A DNA stretch of 64,000 bases from contig CM097887.1 in the NCBI GenBank assembly GCA_044892525.1, positions 122,552,397 through 122,616,396 of the forward strand. Reading direction: 5' to 3'. The position numbers were made by a program, and so were the translations under genes. Origin of the DNA: Schmidtea polychroa (taxonomy: Eukaryota). The notes under the pieces were generated by a model. That model had not been told where the DNA came from, did no database searches, and saw only the letters and a list, made by a program, of their open reading frames with translations. Positions 1 to 19,642 of this stretch are shown piece after piece; positions within the stretch are counted from its first letter, which is position 1; the number at the start of each line of letters is the position of its first letter.

Positions 1-1
1 C

Positions 2-3000
2 TATAAGAGAGAAAAGAAAGTAAATTGGAAGTTGATAGTAGGTTTTCTACCATTTTTGGCAAAAACAATGGTGTTGCACGGTCATTCTAAAGACATACAT
101 AGAATAAAACGATTGATCAAAATACTGACAAAAATAAAAGGAACTGACGAGGAAGTCGGTAGACGATTTCGGAAAACAATGTATGATGAGGCAACGAGAG
201 CGCAACTGAAAAAGAACAAACCAAAATTCCTAGACAGATTTAGAAATCGATCAAACAGCAGCGATAGTGATGATGACGACAACGGGAATGACAAATACCC
301 ATATCCAAGTAGAAACCCGAATGAAAAGCCAATAGAAACAGCGCCATACTGGGAGAAAGAAAAAACAAATACCTGGATAGCCAACGGAAGTTATATACCA
401 CCGGATATCGTTGGACAACAAGCAGCGCTAACCATGACACAAAATATGTATCCACAGTTACCAAGTCAACCAGGTATGAACTATATGCCGACCCGAAGAA
501 CGAAAAGTGTAGACCAAGCGGACGACGTAAGAACGATAGCAGTGATGAGTTCACCAGGAGGTGCGGCAGTAACAGTCATGATCCAAATCAACGGGAAAGA
601 GACAAGCGCCATGATAGATACCGGAGCAAACGTATCAGCAATAGCAATAAACCAAATACCCAGTAAATGTTGGAAAGATATCGAACAAACAACTATCCAT
701 ATCATCGCATGCAGTAAAGAAACCGTAGACGTAGTAGGAAGATGGTGGACTACGTTACGATATCAGGATAACGAAATTGAAACGTATCTAGCGGTGATAC
801 CCAAACTGAGTGAACCATGTATAATCGGAACGGATTTAATGCCGGAATTGTTTAAGGAAGTAGTAATCGATTTAACAACAATGTGTCTAAAAGACAAAAT
901 GGGTAGAATATGCAAGATGAACGCAATAATTAGATGCCCGGAGAAAATAATTGTACCCGCAAAATCACAGATGATATGTCAAATAAAAGTGGATGCAGGA
1001 ATGGAAGGAGAAGTCATTTTTGAGCCAAGCAAATCATTCGAAAAACGACGAGAATTACCATTGGCAAGAGAAATAATAACAATAAATGAAGACGGGGAAA
1101 TACCAATTAACATCACAAATTTCGAGGAAGAAGACAAGATCATATATGAAAATGAAAGATTGGGTAGATTGACACCCATGATAGACATCGAATTACCAAA
1201 AATCACCAACGAAACAACGAAAGCGGACGAATTATGGATAATTGATAGCACCTTGCTAACGGAAAAAGAAAAGGAGAGACTTCAACAATTATTGATAGAA
1301 TATAAAGATATATTCGCAATTTCGGATTTAGATTTGGGAGCATGCGATGTTACACTACACGCAATACCATTAATAGACGAAACTCCAATCGCACTACGTC
1401 CATACAAACTAGCAGAGAAGCAAAAAGAGATAGCCGAGGCAGAAGTACAAAAAATGCTAGATGCACAAGTGATCGAACCAAGTTGTTCGCCATGGCAATT
1501 TCCAGTAGTCATGGTGAAGAAAAAAGATGGTACTCAGAGATTCTGTATCGATTATCGGAAACTAAATGCAGTAACAAAAAGAGACACATACCCATTACCA
1601 GACATCAATGAGATGTTACTTATGTTACAGGGGGCCGCATATTTTACATCTTTAGATCTGAAAAGTGGATATTGGCAGATCAAAGTCAAGGAGGAAGACA
1701 AAGAGAAAACAGCATTCACATTGGGCCGAGATCTATACCAATTCAGGAAAATGCCGTTCGGACTGACCAATGCCCCAGCATCATTCCAGAGATGTATGAA
1801 TTTTGTCACACACGGGATCAAGCAATGTATGGTATATATTGATGATTTATTAATATATTCAGCAACTTTCGAACAACATTTGGAGGACATTAGAAACGTG
1901 TTCATCCGATTACGACAATGGAAACTGAAACTTAAACCATCCAAATGTGATTGGGCAAAAGAAAAAGTTACGTTCTTAGGACACATAGTGTCAGCAAAAG
2001 GCAAAGAACCAGATCCAAGAAACATAGAAAAAATAAAAACATGTCCAGCACCAAAAACTGTCACCCAAGTTCAAGAATTTCTCGGATTATGCGGATATTA
2101 TCGAAAATTCATCAAAAACTATGCAGGCATTGCGAAACCAATACAAGAATTAGTGAAAAAGGATATTTCATTTATTTGGGGTGCAGAACAACAAAAAGCG
2201 TTTGAGACATTGCGAGATAAATTAATTGAAGCCCCAATACTAGTACATCCTGATTTCAAGAAACCGTTCTTATTAGCAACAGATGCAAGTGGATATGCAG
2301 CCGGAGCAATATTGGGACAACTCGACGAGGAAGGGAAAGAAAGAGTGATTGGATACTACAGTAGAACGTTTAAAAAGCACGAGAAAAACTATTCCGTAAC
2401 CGAGAGAGAAGCGTTAGCAATCATACAAGCAATTAAACATTTTCGATATTTGTTATGGGGACACGAAATATGTATCACCACGGATCATCAACCATTAGTA
2501 TGGCTTGGTCAACACAAAGAAGCTTCAAGTAGATTGATGCGATGGGCAATGCAGTTACGAGAATATTCACCGTTCATAAAATTCAAAGCGGGAAGAGCGA
2601 ATGCCAATGCGGATTGTATGTCCAGATTTATCTTTCCAGATTTGGTAGATCACGAAATGCAACGAATATGTCTGATGGTAGCAGAAGATTTAGATTTTTG
2701 CCAATTACGGAAAGACCAACAAGAGGATACAGAGTTGAAGCAAATCATTGAATATGTGAAAACAGGGAAAGCAGAGGTATATGAGAAAGATCAAAAATTG
2801 AAGGAGCATATGGATAAACATCGACATCGATATATTATCGAGAAGGACTGGTTATTGATAATGGATGGCGAGAAAAGACTGATGTGCATTCCCGAGAATA
2901 GACGTAAAGATCTACTAACACAATACCATGACGGAAGACTCGGAGGACATATGTCATCTAAAAAGACGTTGGCACGAATGAAACAAAAATATTTTTGGCC

Positions 3001-5698
3001 TACATTGACCGAGGATGTAACGGAATGGGTGAAAAATTGCATAACTTGCGCAACCAGAAAAAACACGGGAACAAAATGGAAGGCACCATTAAAACCAATG
3101 CCAGTACCAGCAGAACCAATGACTATGATATCTATGGATGTAGTCGGTCCATTACCAGAATCAGATAGAGGGAATATATATATATTGGTGATTACGGATT
3201 ATTTGACGAAATTCCCCGAAGCATTCGCAATGGCAGATCAGAAAGCAAGAACAATCGCAAAAATACTAGTAGAGGAGATATGCTGTCGATATGGAACACC
3301 GAAACGGATATTAACCGATCAAGGGACAAATTTCATGAGCGAAATAATGAGCGAAGTCACCAACTACTTCAAGATCGCAAAATTAAGAACATCACCGTAC
3401 CATCCACAAACTAATGGTATGACAGAAAGATTCAATGGAACACTGATTCAAATGTTATCAAATTATGTCGATCGTCATCAACGAGACTGGGATGAATATA
3501 TAAAATTATGTCTAATGGCTTACAGAATGTCGATTCACGCGTCCACAAAGATGAGTCCGTTCAAGTTGATGTACGGCAGAGAATGCAATATGCCAATGGA
3601 TTTAGAATATCAGCCACCAATATCACAATACATGGAAATAGACGATTATGTAACCAAGTTCAAGGAAAGAATGCAGGAAATCTGGGAAACTGCAGGATTG
3701 AATATAAAATTTTATCAAGAAAGTTACAAAGATCTACATGATAGAAAGAAAAACGTCAAACAGCATACGTTTCAAACAGGCGATTGGGTGATGATCGAAA
3801 CACCAGAATTAATTCCAGGAACCACCAAAAAATTACAACGAAACGGTAAAGGGCCGTATGAGATTCTATTCGTCGGAGAAACTAATGTAAGAGTACGATT
3901 AATGAACAACCCTTTTACAAGACCAATATACGTAAATGTTGCACGATGTAAGCCAATTCCGAAAACCGCCACCAGTCAGCCAGAAGGACGTACATTAACG
4001 ACAAGATCACAAACGTATAGAATAAACATGTTACAGCAGATAAACGAACCAACAGGTAATCGATTAGGGTTACAACCATCAGAAGCCGAGAAAATCATAA
4101 AGGAAGTAAAAGTTAAAATGCCCGGATGGGCAGAAGACAGATTAGATTTTGAGATATTGGGAGGTCTGCTAACAATGATCGAAAATTATGCAAACCGAGA
4201 AAGAACACACCCATTACTCAGGGTAGTAAAAAGTCAATGGCCTATATTATTTACGATCACAGACCACTATGGAGATACACCGCTGCACAAACTTTTAAAG
4301 GTCGGGAATAATGAACAAATACTGGAAACGATCGAAGCATTTCGCGATTGTAACATTTCGACGGATCAAGAAAACAACCAAGGTTACACCCCACTAATGA
4401 TAGCAGCCAATCGGGATAAAGCTAAAGATATTATCATCGCATTACTTGAAACTGGGTCAAAGATAACCACACAAGACCACAACCAGAAAAATGCACTACA
4501 TCATGCAATCGAAGGGAAAAGTACGGAAGCCTTCATAATCTTAGTAGATCTATTATCATATGAGGATAATAGGGAGATAGGAAACATGTATGACGGGTTA
4601 TTAACTGCAATCAAAGAGAAATTAATAACAATTACTGGAATACTAATTGCGTGGAGGAACCCGATCAAAAACGATTATATGGTAGATATAAACGAAACAT
4701 TTACCAAAGGAGAAAACACCTTGATGAGAGAAGCGATGAGAGGACATCACCTATTCGAAATTCCAAAACAACTACTACAACGTGGCATAAAGTTCTCAAA
4801 TCACAAAGACGAACAACTAATCAGAAAACGAATTACCAACTTAGAAAAAGCTATATCTCAATTTACCGATAAAGTACAAGTAAAATTTTGGGAAACCGTG
4901 AGTGTTTTACATATGATGGAAACTATGAACAACATTCGAGAAAACTACCTAAGTATTATTCAAGTTCTAACGGCAGAGGAACGCATTAACAGTTCGAACA
5001 AGAAAAAGATAAAAATAAAGAAAGTAAAAGCAAGAGAGTCTGAGGAACAAGTCGATCAAACAATAACCGATATAGCAACAACAAGTAAACCAAAGACAAT
5101 AAACTCCGACCAAGAGATAGTAGTACGTAAGGCTAAAGAGGTATTCTTTGAAGAAATGCAAGATCTATCCGATGAAGCGATACTATCAAAAATAACAAAA
5201 ACAGTACACACCTACGCAAGAGACCAGACCACAAATCTAGACATAGAAAAAATAAAAACATTTATACCACTAGCATTCACCTTACCAACAAAAGATTCAA
5301 GAACACCATTACAACAAGCCATTTTAGCAGCAAAAGAAAACAGAGCAATAACCATCATAAGAATCCTCAGGGACTTCGGAGAAGAATCTAATGCAAAAAA
5401 TGAACAAGGAGAAACGGCAATGATGTATGCAGCAATAACAAAGATACACCCGAAAACCTTACATATACTACATCAATCAGGTTCGAGACTGGATGAAATA
5501 TCAAACGAAGGAAATTCTACCATGGATTGGGCAACAATACAACCAAACTTGGAAATGATTAGATTCATTTGTAAAAATGCTACAAGAGCTGAGGTAGAAA
5601 ATATCTGTAAAAACACGTCACAGTTCCAATGGAACGATACGGATGAACTTAGAAGCTATGAAGTTATTGCTAACATGGAGAATACCACAAAGCAATAA
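2..5698 (+). CDS. pol: Retrotransposon polyprotein: aspartic protease, reverse transcriptase, RNase H, integrase, plus C-terminal ankyrin repeats (5'-truncated by the window edge)
   Basis: Frame is open from position 2 (the track's start at 32 is TTG). Protease SAMIDTGANVS (DTG at 617-625); RT RFCIDYRKLN, MPFGL and YIDD (1835-1846); RNase H LATDASG, EREALAI, TDHQPL; integrase HDGRLGGH...CITC, MDVVGPLP, TDQGTNF, ERFNGTL, GPY; ankyrin-like GDTPLH, GYTPLMIAA, QKNALHHA, RTPLQQA, GETAMMYAA. Confidence 0.97.
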   Translation, partial: YKREKKVNWKLIVGFLPFLAKTMVLHGHSKDIHRIKRLIKILTKIKGTDEEVGRRFRKTMYDEATRAQLKKNKPKFLDRFRNRSNSSDSDDDDNGNDKYPYPSRNPNEKPIETAPYWEKEKTNTWIANGSYIPPDIVGQQAALTMTQNMYPQLPSQPGMNYMPTRRTKSVDQADDVRTIAVMSSPGGAAVTVMIQINGKETSAMIDTGANVSAIAINQIPSKCWKDIEQTTIHIIACSKETVDVVGRWWTTLRYQDNEIETYLAVIPKLSEPCIIGTDLMPELFKEVVIDLTTMCLKDKMGRICKMNAIIRCPEKIIVPAKSQMICQIKVDAGMEGEVIFEPSKSFEKRRELPLAREIITINEDGEIPINITNFEEEDKIIYENERLGRLTPMIDIELPKITNETTKADELWIIDSTLLTEKEKERLQQLLIEYKDIFAISDLDLGACDVTLHAIPLIDETPIALRPYKLAEKQKEIAEAEVQKMLDAQVIEPSCSPWQFPVVMVKKKDGTQRFCIDYRKLNAVTKRDTYPLPDINEMLLMLQGAAYFTSLDLKSGYWQIKVKEEDKEKTAFTLGRDLYQFRKMPFGLTNAPASFQRCMNFVTHGIKQCMVYIDDLLIYSATFEQHLEDIRNVFIRLRQWKLKLKPSKCDWAKEKVTFLGHIVSAKGKEPDPRNIEKIKTCPAPKTVTQVQEFLGLCGYYRKFIKNYAGIAKPIQELVKKDISFIWGAEQQKAFETLRDKLIEAPILVHPDFKKPFLLATDASGYAAGAILGQLDEEGKERVIGYYSRTFKKHEKNYSVTEREALAIIQAIKHFRYLLWGHEICITTDHQPLVWLGQHKEASSRLMRWAMQLREYSPFIKFKAGRANANADCMSRFIFPDLVDHEMQRICLMVAEDLDFCQLRKDQQEDTELKQIIEYVKTGKAEVYEKDQKLKEHMDKHRHRYIIEKDWLLIMDGEKRLMCIPENRRKDLLTQYHDGRLGGHMSSKKTLARMKQKYFWPTLTEDVTEWVKNCITCATRKNTGTKWKAPLKPMPVPAEPMTMISMDVVGPLPESDRGNIYILVITDYLTKFPEAFAMADQKARTIAKILVEEICCRYGTPKRILTDQGTNFMSEIMSEVTNYFKIAKLRTSPYHPQTNGMTERFNGTLIQMLSNYVDRHQRDWDEYIKLCLMAYRMSIHASTKMSPFKLMYGRECNMPMDLEYQPPISQYMEIDDYVTKFKERMQEIWETAGLNIKFYQESYKDLHDRKKNVKQHTFQTGDWVMIETPELIPGTTKKLQRNGKGPYEILFVGETNVRVRLMNNPFTRPIYVNVARCKPIPKTATSQPEGRTLTTRSQTYRINMLQQINEPTGNRLGLQPSEAEKIIKEVKVKMPGWAEDRLDFEILGGLLTMIENYANRERTHPLLRVVKSQWPILFTITDHYGDTPLHKLLKVGNNEQILETIEAFRDCNISTDQENNQGYTPLMIAANRDKAKDIIIALLETGSKITTQDHNQKNALHHAIEGKSTEAFIILVDLLSYEDNREIGNMYDGLLTAIKEKLITITGILIAWRNPIKNDYMVDINETFTKGENTLMREAMRGHHLFEIPKQLLQRGIKFSNHKDEQLIRKRITNLEKAISQFTDKVQVKFWETVSVLHMMETMNNIRENYLSIIQVLTAEERINSSNKKKIKIKKVKARESEEQVDQTITDIATTSKPKTINSDQEIVVRKAKEVFFEEMQDLSDEAILSKITKTVHTYARDQTTNLDIEKIKTFIPLAFTLPTKDSRTPLQQAILAAKENRAITIIRILRDFGEESNAKNEQGETAMMYAAITKIHPKTLHILHQSGSRLDEISNEGNSTMDWATIQPNLEMIRFICKNATRAEVENICKNTSQFQWNDTDELRSYEVIANMENTTKQ

Positions 5699-7253
5699 AT
5701 ATGCAATAAATATAAATGAGTTCTACGAAAACGGAGAAAATGCTATGGTTAAAAATACACTAACAAAAGGAGGAACTCCGAAAATCATAATGATCGTATT
5801 AAACAGGGAAGATCTCAAATTCACGCAGAATCTAAACGAACAAAAGCGAATCGGGAAACATCGTCGGATACAATTAAGAGAATTAGTGAAAGAATGGAAT
5901 AGAAAGAGACATGTAGCAACAGGCAGAAAGGAGTTCGAATTCGAAGCAAAATTAGCAAGAAACAGAGTGCTAACGGCATACCGCAGATTGTTGAATGATA
6001 TAAATGTCGAGGACGACATTTTAAACGATAGCGGGGGAGATAAAGACGATAAAGACGACGATAATAATGAAAAAGGTCGAAACGGGAATAAAGAGAAAGA
6101 GAAATCAGAGGAGAATAATCAAGAAAATAACGACGCGAGTAGGAAAAAAGAGGAAAATAACCCGAGAAACCGAATAAAGCAAGAAGAAAAGACGAATAGT
6201 GGAAAACAGAGGGTATGCCTACTTTTTACCAACAAAGAAATGGAGACAAATATGATGATAATGATACTCGTATTAACAATGGTGGAAATGATAACAGCCC
6301 AGGGAGGAATGAGAACGATAAAAGAAGCCAAAGAAACGGAAAATAAGGACAACAAAGAAGAAGAACTAAAACAAGAAAAGAAAAAACAAGTACAAGAGCA
6401 GCAATGGGATCTAAAAGAAGAATGGGATTTAAAAGAAAGGTGTATATTAGGAAGATGTATGTCTAGAGCTTATCAGAGACTAGTGTTAAAAAATGAAGAT
6501 GCAGAACCAATAACGGAAGTAAGAATACAAGAAGCATACCGAAATCGAGACGGAAAGAGAATAACGAAAGTCAAAGGGAAGGAGGTACACCTGGGAAAAG
6601 GAGGTGAGGTAGTGATAACGCAACTCCAGCCAAGAAAAGAACACAAAGTCTGCATTGCAAGATTAAGACCGGGTGAAGACTGTCTACAATATGTAATACA
6701 GCAACAACCTCCAAAAGAATACACAATATGCATCTGGAGAAAAGATACAGCGAGAGAATGTCGACGATACCCTGGGAAAAGAGGGAGGAAAAGAAAAATC
6801 AATGATGAAAAAGATGAGCAAGGAAAACGCAAGAAAAACAGTGAGAAACATCAAGACAATTATGTATCCGAGGAGGAGATGGAGAAAATACAAAAAATGG
6901 CAAAGGAAGGTATGAACGAGGAAATAGCAAGAATACGAGGAATGATGAAAGGAAATGGCAAAGAAGGTAATCTAAAAAGCACAGAAGCAATATCAACAAT
7001 AACGAACAAGGAAAAAGCGGAAATTATAAGCGTAAAACAGATGATGTGGATCAGCGGCATAATAATAACAGGGGCCTTTTTAATCATAACGGGGGGGACA
7101 ATAAAAATAATCAAAGATAGACGGCATCGCGGAGAACTAGAAATGGCCAGAATAAGAAATTTTCAACATCGTGTAAAACGACCAAGTAATATCAAGCAGG
7201 AACAGTGGGTGGAGGCCTGGAATGCTCAGCGCCCTCCAAGCTCACGTATATAG
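5643..7253 (+). CDS. ORF2: N-terminus continues the ankyrin array of pol; the C-terminal part (from ATG 6240) resembles a type I membrane protein
   Basis: LLLTWRIPQSNKYAININEFYENGENAM matches ILIAWRNPIKNDYMVDINETFTKGENTL in pol. Hydrophobic MMIMILVLTMVEMITA, a six-Cys region, TM-like WISGIIITGAFLIITGGTI and a basic tail. Confidence 0.75.
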   Translation: MNLEAMKLLLTWRIPQSNKYAININEFYENGENAMVKNTLTKGGTPKIIMIVLNREDLKFTQNLNEQKRIGKHRRIQLRELVKEWNRKRHVATGRKEFEFEAKLARNRVLTAYRRLLNDINVEDDILNDSGGDKDDKDDDNNEKGRNGNKEKEKSEENNQENNDASRKKEENNPRNRIKQEEKTNSGKQRVCLLFTNKEMETNMMIMILVLTMVEMITAQGGMRTIKEAKETENKDNKEEELKQEKKKQVQEQQWDLKEEWDLKERCILGRCMSRAYQRLVLKNEDAEPITEVRIQEAYRNRDGKRITKVKGKEVHLGKGGEVVITQLQPRKEHKVCIARLRPGEDCLQYVIQQQPPKEYTICIWRKDTARECRRYPGKRGRKRKINDEKDEQGKRKKNSEKHQDNYVSEEEMEKIQKMAKEGMNEEIARIRGMMKGNGKEGNLKSTEAISTITNKEKAEIISVKQMMWISGIIITGAFLIITGGTIKIIKDRRHRGELEMARIRNFQHRVKRPSNIKQEQWVEAWNAQRPPSSRI

Positions 7254-7421
7254 AAAGGATTATGACTGTATATAGATTGTAAAAAGTAAGTAGGTAATAT
7301 TTATTTATATAACAGTATTCTATATTTTTATATAAGCGCGGTATCAATAGTATATAATGATGGGGATAATTAATATGAAAATAAAATTAGATAAGGATTG
7401 AAAAGTATATATAAATTAAGA

Positions 7422-7781
7422 ATGGAGCGAATAGGCGAGGAAGTAAATCACAGTACAACAACCGAGGAGATGTGGAAACAACAATGTGCAATGTTAACTC
7501 AAGTGATTTCGAATTTACAGGAACAAGGACTCGCTGTACAAAGAAGCTTAGTCGAAAGTTTAAATAAAGGCTTCAGTTATGTAAGAATAATCGAAGATCA
7601 ACGAATAAAAATAGAACAAATGCAGCGAGAGATAGACCGAATATCACGATACAGCCAGGTGCAAGAAGAGGAGTTAATAAGAATCGCGGAAGAGATGGAG
7701 CGAGAGGAGATAGAAGACTGGTCAGAATGGTTAACCAGCAGGGAAGAGGGCGGACAAGAGGCCGACTCTTCCAGCCAATAA
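7422..7781 (+). CDS. Small acidic coiled-coil accessory protein (119 aa from ATG 7422)
   Basis: Open frame with the element's A-rich codon bias, Q/E-rich helical sequence, flanked by AT-rich spacers. The track start at 7398 is TTG; the first ATG is at 7422. Confidence 0.7.
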   Translation: MERIGEEVNHSTTTEEMWKQQCAMLTQVISNLQEQGLAVQRSLVESLNKGFSYVRIIEDQRIKIEQMQREIDRISRYSQVQEEELIRIAEEMEREEIEDWSEWLTSREEGGQEADSSSQ

Positions 7782-7870
7782 ATATAACCTAAAATAGCAA
7801 TGTAAATAACTGTAAATAAAAATACGAAACTGTACCAGTAACGAATATATGTATATATATAATTATAGAA

Positions 7871-9258
7871 ATGGATAAGCGACAACGAGAAGAATTCAAA
7901 GAAATTGTTGAACAAATCAGAAAGTCCACCACAATTCGAATACACAACCATGTAACGTGTGGAATATGCAAGAGCTTATTAAGAGAACCTCACCAAACCA
8001 GATGTGGATGCAGAATGTGCAGAGAATGTGTAGAGGAGATAATAAAGAAGGGACCACAATGGTGCCCAGTATGCAAAGAAACAATGATAACAAGTTTGGG
8101 AGATACAAACGAAGATAAAGCAGCTGTAAAAGATATGTCGAATGCAAACCTAGGATGTAAAAACACCCATGTAATTGGCGAGGAGTGATATGGGAAGTGA
8201 GGCAACATATGGAGCAATGTGAATATAAAATCAGTCAATGCAAACGTTGCCAAGAAGAGATTAAAGTCAATGAAGAAGCAGAACATCAAAGTCGATGCGA
8301 AGAAAGACTGGAGAAATGTGAGTATTGCGGAGAAACCGACACCTGGAAAAAACTAATCAGTCAACATCACAACATACAAGAGGAGAAAGTGTGCGCAGAA
8401 TTCAGAGGAGAATGTCCCAATAAATGCGATAAACCCGGAGTAATAAAACTCGCTCAACATCTGAAAGAATGTGAAAGGAAAAAGATAAGGTGTGTGTTAG
8501 GAAAATGGGGATGTCAGAAACAATTACACCGAGGGGAATTACCCCAACATCTAGCAGAAAACGTATCAACACACGCGGAAATATGGTCAACGGTATTACA
8601 AGAAAACGAAAGGAAAACCGAAAACTTAGAAAGAGAAATAGTCTCGCTAAAAGCGTTGGTAAAGGAACTATTGGAAGAAAAGGAAGCATTTGAAGAGGCG
8701 AGAACAAGTACAAAGATACAGACAAATCTAGTAGAAACTAGCAACATTATGGTGAAAGAACTACATCAAAAAGTAAGCGAATTAAACCTCAACGAATTAA
8801 TACCTACGGCTCCATACATATGGAAAATAACGGGAGTAAAAGAGAAGATGCAGAGAGCGAGAAATGGAAAGGATACAACCTTACTAAGTCCAGCATTCTA
8901 CTCATGGAAAAACGGGTATAAAATGAAAATGAAAGCATACCCCAATGGGGATGGAAGTGCATACGGAACGCATTTCTCAGTATTCTTCTTGATGTGCAAA
9001 GGGCCATACGACGAGTTAATAGAATGGCCATTCAAAGCAAAAATAGACCTCGCAATGATGAACTATCAAAGTATACATGAACAGAGTTTCCATACAGCGG
9101 GAAACCTCGTATGTTACCAAAGGCCCTTGGAAGAAGAAGGACCAGCAACTGGAGCACCAAATTTCATCCTACAGCGGAAAGTAGAAGACATGACGAGAAA
9201 CGACACTATATACATAAAAATAGCGGTGAGGCGAGACGGGAAGAGTAGGACTGAGTAG
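7871..9258 (+). CDS. TRAF-family protein (RING, TRAF zinc fingers, coiled coil, MATH/TRAF-C), intronless, split by a 1-nt frameshift near 8160-8170
   Basis: RING CGIC...QTRCGCRMCREC...CPVC in 7871-8188. In the other frame PCNWRGVIWEVRQH, then C/H zinc fingers, a coiled coil and MATH motifs YIWKI, SPAFYS..GYKM, YPNGDG..GTHFSVFF..KGPYD..EWPF, YQRP. Confidence 0.92.
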
Positions 9259-9473
9259 AGAGACGAATAATTTTGTATATACTAATTGTAAATATCGGCG
9301 TATATATCCAGTAAAATATTATATAATAGTGTAGAAAACCCCAAATCTACCAAAGGTAAACTTAAGCGAAAAACTCCTAAAACAACTCCTATAACGAATT
9401 ATAAAAATAAATAAATAATAAACCAGATATAAGCGTACAACGTTAAGTTAATGATATCGTTATTTAGACAAAG

Positions 9474-10511
9474 ATGACACAAGAAGGAACTGAAGCCCCA
9501 AACCACGAAACCAAAGTCAATAAAATCCATAAGGGAAAATGGGTCAAAGTAATGTTACAATTGACGAACCAGACCCACAACCACCTCGAAGAGGCCAGGG
9601 AATACGAGAATAACAAATATCAGTGGTTAGTAAACAATTTAAGAGCCGAAGCAGAAGCATGCAAAAGAGCCTCTAAGTGGGCATCATTGGAAAACACTCG
9701 CCAAGAAGCGCACAGCCACTATTTAAAACAGTTAGTGCAGGAAGCACGGAAACGATTGACGGACGAAAACACAAAACGAGAAGCAGAAAAACAAAAGGAA
9801 GGAAGGAAAATGAATCACCTATTGGCAGAAGCCCGAAACTGGAAGCGGCAGAACAAAGAGATGAAAAAAGAAATGAAAGAATTGCCTATGAGATTAGAAT
9901 ACGAAAGCGAACAAGGCAAATGGGAGGAAAATCTGGTCATAAGAGAAGAACTGAAACGGCTCAGAAAGATTGCGGCCCGAAGCCAAACATGGCAGACCAA
10001 AGCCATGGAATTTGAAAGACATCTAGCCATGAAAATCTCCATAAGGGAGCACGAGAATGCCGCAATGGAAGAACTGATACTTCAACAGTCAGGACGACTC
10101 GTGGAACTGGTAAATAAGGTCGCAGAACTAGAACGAGATGTCAACGGATACCAAGGAGCTCTGGAGCAGAGAAATATGGTACTGGCGGGGAAAAACAAAA
10201 AGTTAGAAAACGAAAGGAAAATGTATAACGAAAATCTCAAAAATCTGGAGATAGAGATCAAGAAATGGGAAAACGGCGAAAAAGCGGAAGAGTTAGAAAA
10301 ACAGATAGAGGTACGGGATGACGAAACTAGGTATTTAACCTACCTATTGGACGAGGAACTCAATGTGTCAAGAGCGCTAAGAGACGAAGTCCAAGAACTT
10401 AGAGCGCAGATTCCCCGGTACTACATCCCATTTGATCCCATCGCACTCCAATTACAAACGTCAGTAGAAAGCGATGAAGGATATGTAGGCCAGGAAGAGA
10501 CCTTTGTATAA
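9474..10511 (+). CDS. Long coiled-coil accessory protein (345 aa)
   Basis: ATG-to-stop ORF, E/K/R/Q/L-rich helical sequence, element codon bias; no catalytic motif recognised. Confidence 0.8.
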   Translation: MTQEGTEAPNHETKVNKIHKGKWVKVMLQLTNQTHNHLEEAREYENNKYQWLVNNLRAEAEACKRASKWASLENTRQEAHSHYLKQLVQEARKRLTDENTKREAEKQKEGRKMNHLLAEARNWKRQNKEMKKEMKELPMRLEYESEQGKWEENLVIREELKRLRKIAARSQTWQTKAMEFERHLAMKISIREHENAAMEELILQQSGRLVELVNKVAELERDVNGYQGALEQRNMVLAGKNKKLENERKMYNENLKNLEIEIKKWENGEKAEELEKQIEVRDDETRYLTYLLDEELNVSRALRDEVQELRAQIPRYYIPFDPIALQLQTSVESDEGYVGQEETFV

Positions 10512-10684
10512 AGATAAAGGGGAAGATAAAAAATATAAAAATCGGGACCTGTATCCCAACCAAAAAATTAATGGTACGGTAAAAGTATGAAAGGGACTGT
10601 AACCCTGATTATAAAATAACATATAAATGTATAAGTATAAGCCGCACTGTAGCGCAATTATTAATTACGTATATATTATAGAAA

Positions 10685-11386
10685 ATGAACGCTGAGAACG
10701 GACAATCTATCATAACACCTATAATTGAATTAGAAGAGGGGGAAATTGAAGTTGATGAAGTGGAAAGGAAGAAAACTATCAAGGAAGAATTACAAGAAGA
10801 GAGACAGGAAAACGAAAGATTAGTAGAAAGGTGGAGAGATAATCGAAAAATGATTAAAGTATTGAAAAGAGAATATATCTTGTTAGAAGGAGTAAAGAAA
10901 GAAGTAGAGGAAGAAAACGAATGGCTTCACGAGCAAAGAAAGCGAGGGAGAAATTGGGAAAAGATCGCGGAAGAATTATGGCAGGAGAGGGCCAGTCGAA
11001 AGGCCGACGAAGTGATTAGTGACTATTGGAAAACCGAGGCACGGAAACACCAAGAAAGCCTGAAAGAGTTACAACTCCAACTACACCAAAAACAGAAGGA
11101 ATGTGAGATAATGAGACGAATGAACAACAAATACCAGGAAATAGACAACGAAGAAGACGGGGAAAGGGAAAATGATTTTCTACAGATAATGAACCATAAA
11201 AACCTCGAAAGAGCAACACAAGAAATAAAAGCACTAAAAGAAAAAATAATAACCCTAAAGCAACAGTTAGACGAAAGAGACAAACAATTAAAAGTACTAC
11301 CCGAATTGAGAAAACGAGTAATAAAAGCAGAAACGAGAGTGATGAGAACATCCGAGAAAACCCGTAAAAAGAAAACCCGGCAATAA
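10685..11386 (+). CDS. Coiled-coil accessory protein (233 aa) with a basic C-terminus
   Basis: ATG-to-stop ORF, E/K/R-rich, ends RKKKTRQ. Confidence 0.78.
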   Translation: MNAENGQSIITPIIELEEGEIEVDEVERKKTIKEELQEERQENERLVERWRDNRKMIKVLKREYILLEGVKKEVEEENEWLHEQRKRGRNWEKIAEELWQERASRKADEVISDYWKTEARKHQESLKELQLQLHQKQKECEIMRRMNNKYQEIDNEEDGERENDFLQIMNHKNLERATQEIKALKEKIITLKQQLDERDKQLKVLPELRKRVIKAETRVMRTSEKTRKKKTRQ

Positions 11387-11441
11387 TTAAAGATGAATGA
11401 TCAATGTAAATAATTGTAAATAAAAATTTTCGTATAGTAGT

Positions 11442-12077
11442 ATGTGGTTCGGAACAACCCTGATGACAATAATGATGATAGCGATAAACGGAATACCCAT
11501 GGGGCAGCCAATCCCAACACTCTGGGAGAATCCCGAGAAACAGCAAAACCCGTTAACCAAACTGAAAAGCGAAAGAAAGCTCTCCAACAACATCCCGAAG
11601 CAATGCTGGAACAAAGCCGTCTGGCAAAAACTTCAAATGCAACTCCACCTACAAACCCAAAAAATCGAACAGCTCGAAATTCTCTTACAAGAACAAACCA
11701 CCCAACAATCCTTGAAGGAAATCATCGTGAAGAAGGAAGTAAAAGAAAGCCAAGTCTTACTCTATGCTACCATCAGTGAAACCCTTATCATCTGCGCATT
11801 AGTCATCTGGAAAGCATATGATATTCATCGAACATGGAGAAGAAACCAGTCACTATCCGAGAAACACGAAAGAAAGAACCCACGACCGAAAAATAAACAT
11901 AAACGAGCAGTACATTTTCAACAACCAAACCCACCCGACCAAATGCAACTAAATCTATCTCCTGATCAAATGCCTGTTACAATCCAGCTCCCCACGATAA
12001 CAACTTCAACCAGCCATCCGACCCAGAATTCAACCAACCAAGACAGTAATAACATTCCGAACCTTGAGATCATGTGA
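11442..12077 (+). CDS. Putative type I membrane accessory protein (211 aa)
   Basis: Signal-peptide-like MWFGTTLMTIMMIAING, Q/L coiled coil, TM-like VLLYATISETLIICALVIW, a basic stretch and a P/Q/T/N-rich tail. Confidence 0.72.
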   Translation: MWFGTTLMTIMMIAINGIPMGQPIPTLWENPEKQQNPLTKLKSERKLSNNIPKQCWNKAVWQKLQMQLHLQTQKIEQLEILLQEQTTQQSLKEIIVKKEVKESQVLLYATISETLIICALVIWKAYDIHRTWRRNQSLSEKHERKNPRPKNKHKRAVHFQQPNPPDQMQLNLSPDQMPVTIQLPTITTSTSHPTQNSTNQDSNNIPNLEIM

Positions 12078-12839
12078 CATCGACCATTCATAAACTTTGT
12101 GTGTATAAATCCGGTCACCTAAAGTGGCCACTGCTTGCTTATATTTGTCCTTTTATCTGTTTAATTAAAGTATTATTTAGTTATTTTAATTTTATGTTTG
12201 TGTGAATGATGATCGTGAAATTAGTTGTTATGCCGAAAAAAGGTATGATTTAAACGTATGATATTATGTGAATTGCGGGGCGCAATTTTAACGGGCCCCG
12301 GAGTGATTTGTTGGGCTAAAACGTGGAGTTTCGAAAACTGGAGCAAATAGAAAAGTAATCCTTGAAAAATTAACGAAATAAAATAAAAATATAAAGTACC
12401 ATCAAATTCTCACTAATAAAGCAAAAAGGAACAATAAAATATCAATAAGAGAATAAGAATAAGTAAAACAAACTAAATAAAACCCAATAAACCCCTTGAG
12501 ATTTAGAAATAAAGCGATTTAGGACCCAGCAGATGAAATAGAATAAAATAAGTAAAAAAGTGACAACAAATAAACGAGAAATTTAAGAAATAAATAAAAA
12601 AAAATAAAACTATCTTTAAGTCTAATTAAAACAAAAAATTATATTACAATAAAAATAGGAGGAAAATAATAAAAATAAGAAAATAAATAAAATAATAATA
12701 AGAAATAAGTTAAGTCATTAAAATCTAATATATTATAATAAAAAACATAAAAATAATAATAAATAGTAAAAATACAAACAAGTCGTGTCCTGATTGGACG
12801 AAAAATAATATATAAGGAACGGAAAATATCTGTAGATTA

Positions 12840-12919
12840 CCATTTTTAAAAAATATTCTACAGGTGACCATTTTTAAAAAATATTCTACAGGTGACCACT
12901 TTTAAAAAATATTCTACAG
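12840..12919. repeat. 28-bp tandem repeat, about 3 copies (CCATTTTTAAAAAATATTCTACAGGTGA)
   Basis: Units start at 12840, 12868 and 12896 (third unit partial, one mismatch). Confidence 0.92.
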
Positions 12920-15219
12920 ACTTGACAGATTTCGGAACCTTTAATTAGCCTACAGCGAACTAGTTCAGAGATTTCCAAACCAAACCGAGGAAGGAATATA
13001 TAGAGGCCAAACTACAAATCCATTCGGGAAAAAATCTTAAATTCAACCGATTTTAACTTCAGTTTTCGAAACTCAAGGTATGCCTCGACAGTTGTTTTAT
13101 TTATGGTTATTAGGTTAATTTCGTTAATTATTATAAATATAATAAAACAATTTCATATAATAAATTTATTTAAATGAAAAGTTGCCTTTCTTCATGGTAC
13201 CGGCGACTGTACCATCTGAGAGCTCCCAGTATGATGTGGACGAGTTGGAATTGCACTGCAGTTGAGGACACCACCGTGGAAAGGTTGGTATGCATAAGAA
13301 ATCACGAACATGCTGAAAGGAGAATGTGATATTTGTAGAGAGTGATATTGTCATATTAGATATCCATCAAGGAGACGAGGAGGTTTCGGTTACGTAGGAG
13401 GAGCAACATCATACTCGGAGATCCAAATGATATGGTCGCCGGGTAAATTTTATTTATGCATTTTTCTATCATTCAGTTTGATTATTGTATTGTTGATTTG
13501 ATTGCATGGAAACGAGTTGATTGGTCCCTCATGACGGTGCAAGGAGGCGGCAGCAATGAATGCCTTCTTGGGTGTGTCGTGAGGGGTGAAGAAACTCAGT
13601 AGGTGGAACATCCAGTTGATAAGTGAAAATTTCCTTCATCAAGCGCGATCGTCCATAGAGCTTACCATCGATTCATTTAGCCCAATCGAGATTTCCAGTA
13701 GATGTAGAGATGATTTGAATTCCGAATGCAGGCAGTTCAGAGCGAGATAGGCAGTGACGATAATAATCCACATAGCTAGGAGAAAGATTTTTTTTTTGAT
13801 ATTCAGCCGGTCAATCGACGTAGCTAGGAAAGAGTAGTGTTGACCATGGATTGCAAGTAAATCCAACGATTTTTCAGTGACGCTCTGTGTTTGCAAGGTT
13901 CTGTCTGATTTGTGCCGTCATGATGTTAGTGGTTACATCCATTGCCGATGTACTCTTACGATTTGATTGTCGTCCGTGAGTCGCCAATGCTAGTGATAAA
14001 AATCTCTCGCTGACAGGGAAGTAAACATCTTGTAGGGAAATTATCAAAATTCTTACTTCGAGCTCGCAGACAGTAGTTGCCAACGATAACGAAATCAGTT
14101 GATTTACATTAGCCAGCGTAGAGTTAGTCGACAGGAGATATCTGATAATGTCCTGGAGAAAGAGATAACATGTTAGTTTTTCTGGGGAAACGTCAAATGG
14201 ATAAGCTGATAGTCATTGATCTGAATTTAGATCGTAAAAGGAAATTAGATGATAATGTTGAGCTTACCCAATAATCTATGAAGTTGTCGCCCACTCAGAT
14301 TGAATAATCTGCTTTTCCAATTCATCTACGGCTGCTTATTTGAGGGATCTATTACGCAACCACTATTATTCCGACTTGAGCATGCACATACACACGCACC
14401 ACAGTCAAATATACATAGGGCAGTGTAAAAGTAAATACACAATTTTTGGTGAGGTAATAGCGGTATGATGATGTGAATTTTTCTAGAACGGTGAGATAAT
14501 AGGATGAGGTAAAGGAATGGATTTCCCCTACACAACTCGATATATCATAATTTCTCACAACAGCATAAACCATCATTCGCAGTGATAGCCAACATACAGT
14601 TACAGATACCACCAGGAGTAATGACACACCTACACAGTCAATCATAATGCATAATCACAAGTGAACGTTTTCCATGACGACGATTTCGACGCGTTATTGG
14701 AATTAATTAGATGTAGATTTAGAGCAGAATTTTCAACTGATCACTTGATCAATTCCATAATTTTGAACGAGATAAAAACATAAATAATCTATTCCGTCGC
14801 CGTGAATTATTTCTCTGTACTTTTAGGTACGCCTACATCGACGGATTGCCATAATGATATCGGCAAATTTTTAAATAAAAATATACTAAGGGGAACAAGG
14901 TGGAAGGGTTTTTCAGTGAGAAAGACGAGTTTTACCTGGGGATGGTCCCATCCGAAAGTAAACCCAAAGGGCGAGGTTCATGTAGAGAGAATTTTCCGTA
15001 TGAAATCCCCGTTTCCTTTTCTTAATTTACACGAATTAGGTGAAGAGATTTGAATGTTTACAACTGAATGACTGCGTATAGAGATGGATGAAGAAGTGTG
15101 TGGGTCATCGTTGGGTGGTATGCTTGATAAACTCCAAAGCCACGCTCAAAAATTTGATTATTCTTTTCTCACTAATAGAGGTTTTTCCGAGTAAATATAA
15201 ACAATGATTGATTTTCTAG

Positions 15220-15981
15220 ATGGCTACATCGTCCAACCACGCCAAAGAACTTCGCCCGTGTTTTTCTTGTGCGGACAAGAACGCGGATATCGCCCAACTG
15301 CATTTATATATCGGGGCTCTCAAAAAGAGAATTGATCTCTATGAAGGAACGTGGTTCTCCCCGCCACAAATGAAAGAGGAACGCAAGAAAATTCTCCGAT
15401 TAGAGCATTGCAGGGACAGCCTGCTAGAGGAAAGCCGGTGTCAGCGGCTCACCATCAAAGCGCAATCGGAAGCCCTCCATAAGGTGTATACGGAGGCAGA
15501 ATTGGCTAAGCGGGTGCGAGAATTTCCCGTTCTAGAGGGGACGAATGTCTTTCCCCCTCACCACCCGTCTCCTACTTCTTCCAGCTCGCACTGCCAGGGG
15601 CACGGCTCACAACTGCCGCCCATTCCAGCCCCGGTGTTGTCAAGTCACCAGCCAAAGACAGGTGGACCTACCAATCCCATCGTAGCTCCAATCCTGGTAG
15701 CACAAATCGGTACCACGAACACCGAAAACCCCCCGACTACCCGCAAACGGAAACGGCCAACTCGAGCCGAGAAGAACCAAAAACGCCGAGATGCGATGAC
15801 AGCACTCGAGACGTCCTTATCGGCGGCGAATTCAAAAATCCAAGAGATAACGTCCTCCCATTCAATCCCCTCAAAGGAAGTCTTCCGCATTGTTCCAGCT
15901 GAGGGCATCAAATACATTGTAGATAGCCGATTACCGGTCGACATAGATGAGATACTGGCCGATGGAGATAACTTTGTTTAA
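15220..15981 (+). CDS. ORF inside the candidate LTR (253 aa): CxxC, coiled coil, P/S/H-rich linker, basic NLS-like segment
   Basis: ATG-to-stop ORF directly preceded by TTTTCTAG. Contains PCFSCAD and RKRKRPTRAEKNQKRR. Visibly more GC-rich than the upstream ORFs. Confidence 0.7.
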   Translation: MATSSNHAKELRPCFSCADKNADIAQLHLYIGALKKRIDLYEGTWFSPPQMKEERKKILRLEHCRDSLLEESRCQRLTIKAQSEALHKVYTEAELAKRVREFPVLEGTNVFPPHHPSPTSSSSHCQGHGSQLPPIPAPVLSSHQPKTGGPTNPIVAPILVAQIGTTNTENPPTTRKRKRPTRAEKNQKRRDAMTALETSLSAANSKIQEITSSHSIPSKEVFRIVPAEGIKYIVDSRLPVDIDEILADGDNFV

Positions 15982-16805
15982 CGTGACGTACAATTGAGTT
16001 TGATTTCCTCTTCATTGAGTTGTAAATTATCTTGTGAATGTTGCTAATGTTATGTCTTTTTGACTGCTGTTGATCTGTTAGTAGTAACGATATTTTTATA
16101 GTTTCAGCGTCAATAAAATTTTTTTGTTTGATTTCAGTTTTGTCGAGTTTTCATATATTTGTTTGTGCAATTAGGATAAATGAGATAATGCTGCGGAATG
16201 AAGGTAATTAAAGTTGAAGGTCGTTCCTTTGGACCAGGATCAGACTGAGTGACACGCATGTATGTGGGTAAGTCCTTCTAAGGCACCGTAGGACCCGAAC
16301 CGAGAAAGGGTTAGGAGTAGTCCTAAGGCAGGGGCTCACCTGCTAACTTTTTCCGACCCGTGTGAGCAGCACCAACATGGAACATCACCATGGGCTCATA
16401 CGTGGGAATATGCAATCGATCATTTGGAGTATGTGTAAGAAATGTATAACTGAGTAATGATGCTTGATAGGTGTGATGGAAAGGCATGCATAATTTTCTT
16501 TCTTCTCCACATACGCCAACACGTATGAAAACAGAAAACGTTAATTAATTAATTAATTGGCTAATGGAAAACCCGAGCCAATGGAGAACCCGAGAGATAA
16601 AGGAAACCCGAGCTGGGTAAACAAGAAGAAAGGCAAACAAAAGGAAAATTTGGGCCCATTAGCTTGACACAATGATTAATGGGAAAAGAGTAAGGAGAAG
16701 ATAGCGCGCGTAGGAAGACCGGTAGGGCCATTAATTATCTGGATTCGTTGGACCATTATGGATGACAGCCGAAGCAAACACGTAGGAGAAAATGTCAAAC
16801 GAAAG

Positions 16806-16909
16806 ATTGGCTCGGCAATAACCATTTGTCATCCTGATTTCGAGGAGTATATAAGCAAAGGGAAAATCAGAGAAAATCGGCATTTTGCCTCAGGTAGGTT
16901 AAGAAGAAT
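16806..16909 (+). promoter_or_regulatory. Putative LTR promoter (CCAAT box, TATA) and downstream splice donor
   Basis: ATTGG at 16806, TATATAA at 16848-16854, TCAG about 30 nt downstream, CAG|GTAGGT at 16901-16909. The TATA and donor are not conserved in the related LTR at 42.8 kb. Confidence 0.4.
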
Positions 16910-17421
16910 TAGACTGTAGGAAAAGTGGTAAACGAATTAGGGAAGTAGGGAAAAGAAGAAATAGAATTAAGAATACGGAAAGGCGAAAAGGGATCAAACC
17001 AAAGAGAAACCGAGGAAAAAGAGAGTCGAGATAACTAAAGGATCAAAAGGTGAATATTGTTTGTTTGCAAAGCATCAACGCCGAGCGGAGAATCGTATAA
17101 AACTTTGATTGGTAATTGTAGCGTGATAATAAATTGTGAACTTGTTGTTTCAATATACGTTGGGTCGTTCATTGTTTTACTTTAAAGAACACCAGGAGTC
17201 AGAGAGAACCGACTTGAAATAATCCAAAACCCAACAGACTAATGAAATCAACAAAGTATTTGATCTTTTGTCAAAACAAAAATAGAAGAAATGACAATTA
17301 ATCTCAACAATTCTTTTGAAATAAGTAATGAGTAAAATCTAGTTATTTTTTTTATTTTAGTATGAATCTGGACATTTAAAACAAATATCAAGTAATATCA
17401 ATATTTGATACAACCCATTAA

Positions 17422-18394: not shown

Positions 18395-19642
18395 TTATTT
18401 ATTCGGCACAAACATTTTAATCCCCTCTCTCTCGATTTCTGTATAATTCAATATATCCAACAATTCTTTATCAACTTCATCTGTTTTAGTTAGCGACGAA
18501 ACTCGATCACAGGCCAGTTTGTTCGCTGTGCAAATGTTCTTGATGGCCAGAATGGCATGCTGCTGGATATAGGGATTGCATAAATCGATTCTTGTGCTCG
18601 ACATTACAAGTTCCAATCCACCAGTGTCAACGACAATGTCTTGAATTGATTTATTATCATGGACTAAGTTAGAAATTAATTTGATAGTGAATTTTTTTAT
18701 GTTGAATATTGGTCGATCTATAAAAGTTTCATTTTTACTGAATGAATAATGGCTTTTAAAAATTTTATTTTCTTGAGGATCTTCATCGTATTGACGGAGA
18801 ATTCTTAGAACTTCTAACAATGACTTGATAAGAGCAGATTGTATTTCACATGAAATTATTTCTTTGATGTTATGAATATTGGATAATATCATAAGAGACA
18901 ATTTAATTATATCCAATTGCGATTGGTCAGATTTTTTAAATAAATCTTTATCGTCTTCTACTTTCAATAGCAAATAATCGACTAAAAATTTCGTATTTTC
19001 GATAGACATGTCAATATGTGCTTCATCAATAAAATATAACAACTGTACAATTACAACAGGATTACAAAATTTGAAACAATTTCTAACAAATCTAGAAGAT
19101 TTTTCCAACATTTTAGTTAGTAAAATATTACCATTTTCTATTTCAGATTCGTCAACTGCTTTGAAAATATTAGATATTAAAGAGAAATTTATACATGAAC
19201 AAACATAATCACATGAAAATATTTTGCTACTGTAAACATGCAATATCAGCCAAATAATAGTTCTGATTTCAGTGGAAGTTGAAATTTCAACGCAAACAAA
19301 AATTAAAGTGTTCAATATTTTTATAAGGCGATAATCGTATTGGTGCAAATTATCTTCAGAACATAGAAAGTTGTGTAACGTTTGGGATGCAACTAACTTT
19401 ATTGTTTCATCATCACATTCAAATTTAAATGATAAGCAGCAAAATATGAAGTCTAAAAGTTCTGTGAAACATTCGGAAGGAAATTTTTTCAATCCTAATG
19501 AATTTCTAAAAATTTGAATTGACTTAATTAGCAATTTTATATTATTGCAAGATTCTGATTTCAATAATGGTTGAACCTCTTTGAAGATTTTTAAAATATT
19601 CTGTTTATTGTAACTATCGATGTCTTTCAAATTAAAATTCAT
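18395..19642 (-). CDS. ATXN10: Ataxin-10 homologue (ARM-like repeat protein), single exon, 415 aa
   Basis: C-terminal KKFTIKLISNLVHDNKSIQDIV...GGLELVMSSTRIDLCNPYIQQHAILAIKNICTAN matches the ataxin-10 signature domain. Confidence 0.85.
   Translation of the reverse strand: MNFNLKDIDSYNKQNILKIFKEVQPLLKSESCNNIKLLIKSIQIFRNSLGLKKFPSECFTELLDFIFCCLSFKFECDDETIKLVASQTLHNFLCSEDNLHQYDYRLIKILNTLIFVCVEISTSTEIRTIIWLILHVYSSKIFSCDYVCSCINFSLISNIFKAVDESEIENGNILLTKMLEKSSRFVRNCFKFCNPVVIVQLLYFIDEAHIDMSIENTKFLVDYLLLKVEDDKDLFKKSDQSQLDIIKLSLMILSNIHNIKEIISCEIQSALIKSLLEVLRILRQYDEDPQENKIFKSHYSFSKNETFIDRPIFNIKKFTIKLISNLVHDNKSIQDIVVDTGGLELVMSSTRIDLCNPYIQQHAILAIKNICTANKLACDRVSSLTKTDEVDKELLDILNYTEIEREGIKMFVPNK

Follow-up and report, generated by a model that had tools for sequence, protein, structure and literature searches.

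How does a giant transposon make separate messages for its many extra genes, and how are these genes held in check? The question is posed by a stretch of 64,000 nucleotides (nt) from Schmidtea polychroa (GenBank assembly GCA_044892525.1, contig CM097887.1, positions 122,552,397 to 122,616,396 of the forward strand), called the window below and numbered from its first letter. An original prediction, made from the letters of this DNA, had seen in positions 7254 to 11441 a repeated Pumilio-type code belonging to a multi-gene transposon. By the protein domains found in it, the carrier is indeed such a transposon, a Burro-like Gypsy long terminal repeat (LTR) retrotransposon. Burro and GYPSM1 are giant Gypsy LTR retrotransposons of dugesiid planarians; Burro elements exceed 30 kb, with an internal part of up to 25 kb (PMC6431247). 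In the text surveyed, no account was found of the means by which Burro elements express so many extra genes and keep them in check. In the window, five spacers of 168, 89, 215, 173 and 55 nt (700 nt in total; Table 1) separate the open reading frames (ORFs) that follow the polyprotein, and each of them contains a candidate signal.

A stop-proximal motif repeated between the genes

Eight copies of TGTA(A/T)ATA start on the + strand at 7267, 7801, 7811, 7850, 9274, 9287, 11405 and 11415, all where the original prediction had placed them, and all eight match the consensus UGUAHAUA exactly. They lie 14 to 69 nt 3' of stop codons in four of the five spacers. The first copy follows the stops at 7253, 7781, 9258 and 11386 by 14, 20, 16 and 19 nt, and both these distances and the total of about 700 nt of spacer were reproduced. 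The position of the motif tracks the upstream stop (14-20 nt) and varies relative to the next ATG (37-200 nt). The - strand of the spacers has no copy, and none was found in the polyprotein (5.7 kb), in the other accessory coding DNA (+ strand) or in the LTR; host DNA at 17238-64000 (43.8 kb) has five on the + and eight on the - strand. The motif had been expected after accessory stops. It does follow the stop in four of the five spacers, but the stop at 7253 probably ends the polyprotein instead, since a single polyprotein appears to have been broken near 5643-5698. Counted over the whole element, four of nine stops have the motif and three others have near-matches only; the motif-less stops at 5698 and 8188 are probably products of breaks in this copy.

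Motif copies and TGTA pairs form doublets with periods of 10-13 nt. Among the eight stop-proximal TGTA of the four motif-bearing spacers, position 5 is variable (6 A, 2 T), positions 6 and 8 are always A and position 7 is T in seven. This variation fits the pattern of the Pumilio consensus, given as UGUAHAUA (PMC12606947) or UGUANAUA (10.64898/2026.03.10.710821). The near-identical sequence that had been noticed in two spacers is a block of 26 nt in spacers 2 and 5 (7798-7823 and 11402-11427; 25/26, 96%), which forms a 10-nt tandem doublet in each. Its flanks and the adjoining ORFs are unrelated, the ORF ends next to it being 32-37% identical and no closer than shuffles. Such identity between ORFs without visible homology suggests constraint or a short copy event. 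Duplication of a whole gene was not supported as the source of the block (genes labelled A2 and A5; DNA P 0.24, protein P 0.36). The similarity of A4 and A5 has P 0.037 against plain shuffles, which is weak for charged proteins.

Enrichment was tested with shuffles of each spacer that preserved mono-, di- or trinucleotides (20000 each). The expected number of copies was 0.23, 0.65 and 1.47, respectively, and eight were reached in none of the 20000 shuffles under any scheme. The enrichment over shuffled spacers thus stands, while the initial estimate of about 0.3 expected copies proved low beside this range. Trinucleotide shuffles retain 13.6 of the 15 TGTA and yet yield 1.47 full 8-mers versus the eight observed, so the signal extends beyond UGUA. 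In a de novo test of all 8-mers with one wildcard, TGTANATA was ranked top, with a family-wise P of 0.0135 for its count and 0.005 for its presence in 4/5 spacers within a 7-nt window. With spacer 5 dropped, the pre-named motif still has a copy within 25 nt of the stop in three of four spacers (P 0.00013 with di- and 0.00087 with trinucleotides preserved), and five collapsed copies give P 0.00017 and 0.0063, respectively. Among AT-rich host windows of 32 nt, 263 of 46992 (0.56%) hold the motif, and over the whole window it is not enriched (22 versus 16.0 expected; 10/100 shuffles). None of the three other genes of the window has the motif within 45 nt after its stop, and it is likewise missing there from all 51 ORFs of 150 aa or more taken from 26 distant Gypsy-bearing loci, which are GC-richer. 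No shared 8-mer anchored to the next ATG was significant (P 0.20-0.32). Another word, ACTGTANC, occurs at 7831, 10598 and 10648 (spacers 2 and 4); it ranked second in the de novo test, and first without spacer 5.

Acceptor-like sites and the proposed cassette

The second half of the spacers adds a feature beyond the original prediction: an acceptor-like AG precedes every next ATG. It was located with an acceptor model of 12 positions, built on the ends of seven introns in one host gene (CLC-7, exons mapped). The top-scoring AG of each spacer sits 1, 2, 6, 3 and 4 nt before the next ATG, so that the ATG-adjacent AG ranks first of 12, 3, 12, 9 and 3 in spacers 1-5; upstream of the ORF of the LTR it ranks second of 12. 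The spacer scores (-0.5 to 2.2; held-out host acceptors, -1.0 to 6.6) exceed the 95th percentile of the 1018 AGs in the element. In 10000 shuffles, a top AG within 6 nt of the ATG never arose in all five spacers and arose once in four. Scored simply as YAG no more than 6 nt before the ATG, the feature is present in 4/5 spacers, a number matched by 16 of 5000 shuffles. Spacer 1 also has splice-donor-like words, GTAAGT and GTAATA, at 7286-7298, right after its motif pair.

The resulting layout, UGUA(A/U)AUA 14-30 nt after the stop (4/5 spacers) and an acceptor 1-6 nt before the ATG (5/5), is a real and probably functional repeated cassette. We tentatively favour, with nearly balanced doubt, reading the spacers as expression cassettes of the Burro-like element in which the motif acts in RNA through a predicted PUF-type reader. 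Each accessory ORF would acquire its own 5' end by splicing onto the acceptor of the spacer. The donor could belong to a leader of the element itself, as in complex retroviruses, or the host could supply it through spliced leader (SL) trans-splicing, as in flatworm operons. The motif would thereby lie at the start of the 3' untranslated region (UTR) of the upstream message, just past the terminating ribosome; the acceptor before each ATG bears on this step. At 14-20 nt it would stand roughly as close to the stop as a site clear of a terminating ribosome can, as in the 15-nt rule for microRNA sites. Where the motif overlaps AAUAAA, in two cases, a 3' UTR of about 50-65 nt would result. A PUF protein, for example planarian Pumilio, could then act from the twin sites through CCR4-NOT deadenylation, the known route of PUF repression (PMC3868585), and set the stability or translation of the message. 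The polyprotein, the TRAF-like gene and two charged proteins would be co-controlled in stem cells, where RNA interference (RNAi) of Dj-pumilio causes neoblast loss or differentiation defects (PMC3552358).

The motif and Burro have both been described before. The Pumilio response element bound by PUM1/2 and Drosophila Pumilio is the same exact 8-mer, on the sense strand, after stops and often in pairs, whereas in this one transposon the putative sites recur at a constant distance from the stops of consecutive genes. Flatworms including S. mediterranea use SL trans-splicing, with operon spacers near 100 nt, and a range of 300 nt has been applied to the gaps of flatworm operons (PMC12582326). The same-strand gene gaps of the element (55-215 nt) lie within that limit. 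SL-resolved operons of flatworms also have same-strand genes less than 300 nt apart, and the acceptor before their downstream ATG has a candidate counterpart here, but they are host loci, and a transposon operon is not mentioned in the available text of PMC12582326 and PMC8629364. Complex and foamy-like retroviruses, which PMC6431247 mentions, resemble the element in placing accessory genes downstream of those for the enzymes, between env/pol and the 3' LTR, where splicing probably gives access to them. The present element differs from them in being of the Gypsy type. Repeated PUF-type sites after each stop are not known from such retroviruses. Pumilio sites or intercistronic signals of Burro-like elements were not found in the surveyed literature, as far as the available excerpts reach (including PMC6431247, PMC8532177, PMC13238120, PMC13465017, PMC11410931 and PMC10558129), though the main Burro papers may describe accessory transcripts.

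Such a stop-motif-acceptor-ATG cassette suggests a way for the element to produce individual messages from its extra genes and to control them, and it predicts both the 5' and 3' ends of the accessory messages and the host factor that controls them. With trans-splicing in use, the retroelement would function as an operon. Should Pumilio be the reader, a transposon could mediate some of the neoblast phenotype of pumilio RNAi. Burro1 has been reported to support planarian stem cells via a captured IAP (as described in PMC13465017), and Burro signal is high in smedwi-2 RNAi material (PMC8532177). A more speculative picture, which we regard as rather improbable, is that of a giant LTR retrotransposon as a eukaryotic operon: the host SL machinery and internal 3' ends would split its transcript into messages with twin Pumilio sites, the accessory genes (including the TRAF-like E3 ligase) would join the stem-cell Pumilio-CCR4-NOT circuit, and a high copy number might titrate Pumilio from host mRNAs.

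Other explanations of the spacer signals

Twin UGUA together with an A-rich hexamer might be a 3'-end formation signal of the CFIm25 type, which would cut the transcript after each gene without Pumilio. In spacers 2 and 5, AAUAAA follows directly on UGUA, and all four motif-bearing spacers have a pair of TGTA separated by 6-9 nt within 45 nt of the stop (0/20000 dinucleotide shuffles); a planarian CFIm25 is present (PMC5068929), twin UGUA motifs strengthen mammalian sites (PMC10476966), and a 3'-end signal fits an operon-like layout with a downstream acceptor. The CFIm25 (NUDT21) enhancer with twin UGUAYUGUA likewise has two close UGUA upstream of AAUAAA, but its gap is 1 nt, against 6-9 nt here, and AAUAAA stands at 0-10 nt here rather than at 40-60 nt (PMC10476966). 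The usual UGUA-AAUAAA distance is indeed 40-60 nt (PMC12606947), whereas here it amounts to 0 and 10 nt for spacers 2 and 5 and exceeds 100 nt for spacers 1 and 3. A CFIm dimer needs at least 7 nt between the two UGUA (as cited in PMC10476966), and spacers 2 and 5 offer 6 (spacers 1 and 3, 7 and 9). In spacers 1 and 3, the first 125 nt after the stop are free of the canonical hexamer and of its listed variants, and AATAAA is not enriched in the spacers (6 versus 5.75 expected). PMC5068929 reports no UGUA upstream of planarian (S. mediterranea) poly(A) signals and no confident CFIm59/68, and UGUA is likewise reported absent at C. elegans poly(A) signals (PMC6886508). With the spacing wrong and planarian poly(A) sites reportedly devoid of UGUA, CFIm is disfavoured and this explanation is unlikely; readings of the motif in RNA as a Pumilio site and as part of a 3' end are nevertheless compatible, not mutually exclusive. 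Stop-proximal protein sites can have another role, as in the Rous sarcoma virus stability element, which shields messages from nonsense-mediated decay. A similar shield would suit the short fixed distance from the stops and the 3' UTRs of 6-10 kb that would arise if all messages ended in the LTR. Against it, messages are as a rule destabilised by PUF binding, and the shields described are rich in pyrimidines or in CA; the AAUAAA of two spacers points to short 3' UTRs, and spacer 4 lacks the motif. A shield of this kind is highly improbable. Control could also be exerted at the DNA level, with an internal promoter for each accessory gene in which GTAAATA pairs one helical turn apart are forkhead sites and TATAAGC is a TATA box. 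The doublet spacing of 10-13 nt would agree with this, and TATAAGC is found in 3/5 spacers (0.14 expected, P 2e-4, post hoc), in two of them 46 and 49 nt upstream of the ATG, once in the LTR and once in 43.8 kb of host DNA. The forkhead consensus is RYAAAYA, which three of the eight copies (TGTATATA) fail and which is not enriched (7 on the + and 2 on the - strand versus 4.68 expected on +, P 0.18). Moreover, the motif is fixed to the stop (14-20 nt) and not to the ATG (37-200 nt), and TATAAGC, which spacers 2 and 5 lack, has no conserved counterpart in the second LTR. The core TGTTT of the planarian Initiator (PMC10558129, Table S3) is absent from all spacers. We consider such promoters very unlikely as an explanation of the motif, although TATAAGC in three spacers and the LTR may keep them viable for the accessory 5' ends. 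The Initiator was also tried as an identity for the motif itself and rejected, its core being different and its sole match in 1-17240 (+) falling in the LTR.

It is also conceivable that the motif has no present function and consists of chance matches in AT-rich spacers, or of remnants of host 3' UTRs that were once captured, their number raised by slippage and a single short copy event. Part of what weighs against the cassette and its PUF-type reader would suit this account. The copies are not independent, because spacers 2 and 5 share a block and the copy at 7850, 21 nt before the next ATG, is part of a TA run; three of the eight copies are TGTATATA, which arises easily in TA-rich DNA. Short tandem duplications are frequent here (28 rows), so the doublets may be slippage. 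When spacer 5 is dropped, family-wise significance of TGTANATA is lost (P 0.36 for count, 0.22-0.25 for position), and with two broken genes this copy is decaying. Other points tell against the cassette in their own right: spacer 4 (10512-10684) contains no TGTAHATA, and near-matches are all that is found there and after the stops at 12077 and 15981; the acceptor model comes from seven introns of one gene, with a 6-nt window set post hoc; the acceptor of spacer 1 ends in AAG; UUNYAG, the SL acceptor of parasitic flatworms (PMC12582326), is exact in 2/5 spacers, with one mismatch in two more; and in centroid folds the motif sites are unpaired in spacers 2 and 5 but partly paired in 1 and 3, though these fold no better than shuffles. 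The basis is, moreover, one copy of one element. Against a lack of function stand the position of the pre-named motif, which keeps P between 1e-4 and 9e-4 after spacer 5 is dropped, the strand bias of 8 versus 0, the 96% block between unrelated ORFs, and the acceptor, an independent second feature that is positioned too. A functionless motif is quite unlikely on these grounds. The Pumilio-type code of the original prediction is accordingly upheld as an exact, sense-strand, stop-proximal repeat that fits Pumilio better than CFIm or forkhead, while its Pumilio reading has gained partial support. RNA folding gave no spacer better than shuffles (z -0.06 to 1.70), and no Rfam match was found in 5600-17400 at E up to 0.1.

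The element, its relatives and the host DNA around it

Table 1. Features of the element and of the surrounding host DNA, in positions of the window.
Feature	Position	Strand	Contents or basis
Polyprotein, 3' part, open at window start	2..5698	+	ORF; Pfam RVP, RVT_1, RT_RNaseH, Integrase_H2C2, rve, Ank_2
ORF overlapping the polyprotein out of frame	5643..7253	+	C-terminal hydrophobic segment
Spacer 1	7254..7421	+	TGTATATA at 7267, near-match TGTAAAAA at 7278, TATAAGC 7331, AATAAA +127, acceptor-like AG 7419-7420 (AAG, weakest fit)
Accessory ORF, 119 aa	7422..7781	+	No family above cut-off
Spacer 2	7782..7870	+	TGTAAATA at 7801 and 7811 (second overlaps AATAAA 7815), TGTATATA at 7850 in TA run, acceptor-like AG 7867-7868
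TRAF-like gene, two out-of-frame pieces	7871..9258	+	RING 7871-8188; TRAF zinc finger and MATH 8209-9258; Pfam zf-C3HC4, zf-TRAF, MATH_2
Spacer 3	9259..9473	+	TGTATATA at 9274, TGTAAATA at 9287, three AATAAA +148 to +159, TATAAGC 9428, acceptor-like AG 9466-9467
Accessory ORF, 345 aa, charged	9474..10511	+	No family
Spacer 4	10512..10684	+	Four other TGTA, AATATA +21, TATAAGC 10636, acceptor-like AG 10680-10681
Accessory ORF, 233 aa, charged	10685..11386	+	No family
Spacer 5	11387..11441	+	TGTAAATA at 11405 and 11415 (second overlaps AATAAA 11419), acceptor-like AG 11436-11437
Last accessory ORF, 211 aa	11442..12077	+	One hydrophobic segment; stop overlaps inferred LTR start
Inferred 3' LTR, ~5.2 kb	12073..17236	+	TG...CA, with 253-aa ORF; similarity to 42074-43160
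Host ataxin-10-like ORF	18395-19642	-	No introns
Host CLC-7 gene	37872-54417	+
Tc5/pogo-type DDE transposase	48512-49843	-	Inside CLC-7 intron

The likeness to Burro lies in a polyprotein that joins PR-RT-RH-IN and ankyrin repeats, in the MATH/TRAF and RING domains, in charged accessory ORFs and probably in a long LTR. The 5' LTR falls outside the window, as does the region before the protease, where Gag and an in-frame Env or fusion protein would be expected in a Burro element. Among the 150 best matches listed, six single-stretch relatives of the polyprotein (pol) are 48-51% identical. They form one group with the reverse transcriptase (RT) of the window (SH-aLRT 99) in a quick tree whose 32 rows are the window, one partial match and the 30 closest of 138 near-full RT matches. 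Two of the six carry an in-frame Monjiviricetes_fusion domain, a mononegavirus-like fusion protein that further recalls Burro, and one has ankyrins after the integrase. The TRAF-like gene is a separate, intronless gene downstream of pol, whereas TRAF lies inside ORF1 in Burro1 and upstream in the D. tigrina element; this is a third arrangement. Its best match is a rotifer TRAF (27%). No Pfam family above cut-off was found for five accessory proteins, and the two that were tested in the Atlas had only unnamed or low-recognition matches.

The ORF at 5643-7253 is probably the tail of the polyprotein, broken off in this copy, to judge from its resemblance to pol and its relatives. Its residues 8-67 resemble pol residues 1547-1605 (32%, E 4e-5), which follow the first ankyrin cluster, and a hydrophobic C-terminal segment is present in this ORF and in 6/6 closest relatives but not in the pol of the window. 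Within it, at 6240-6305, there is a signal-peptide-like stretch that begins with Met and has a pyrimidine run and AAG on its 5' side; it may mark where a once separate gene began before its fusion with the polyprotein.

The length of about 5.2 kb for the LTR is an estimate based on a single LTR and on a second, diverged LTR-like element. The latter, of 1.1 kb at 42074-43160 inside an intron of host CLC-7, is akin to the large LTR in its 3' part (67-70% over two blocks, with the same terminal words, from which the ends of the 3' LTR were inferred); it is probably a solo LTR left by a smaller family of the same kinship. A donor-like word is common to both LTRs (17048-17055 and 42958), and a word conserved in both (17143-17162 and 43068-43086) can be read as planarian Initiator-like or as the variant poly(A) signal AAUAUA. 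Clues to the start site in the LTR disagree, TATAAGC at 16850 competing with the Initiator-like word at 17143-17154. Across the element, TATAAGC is seen at 7331, 9428, 10636 and 16850, and also at 7025 in coding DNA; these are possible internal TATA boxes. The LTR also contains a 28-nt tandem repeat at 12839-12919 (2.9 copies, 98% matched) and the 253-aa ORF at 15220-15981, which has no Pfam family and has TTCTAG directly 5' of it.

Scanning GTDB contigs with the RT-integrase protein gave 33 pattern matches, none of them confirmed. With a 7-protein alignment, 28 loci (L001-L028) were found, distant and Gypsy-like, with 30-51% identity in the best segment. These pol genes in bacterial assemblies are probably host DNA in bins, and 26 of the 28 loci were taken, as negative control only. 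In the host part of the window, nine gaps comprise 2993 N, including 24566-25193 and 28017-29012, and the ORFs listed at 24558-25220 and 27929-29140 were rejected as artefacts of such gaps. The CLC-7 gene marks the host as a flatworm, and AT content and the element itself point to a planarian: one of its exons shares 79-80% identity with proteins of schistosomes and Spirometra, against 70-76% with most of the non-flatworm proteins listed.

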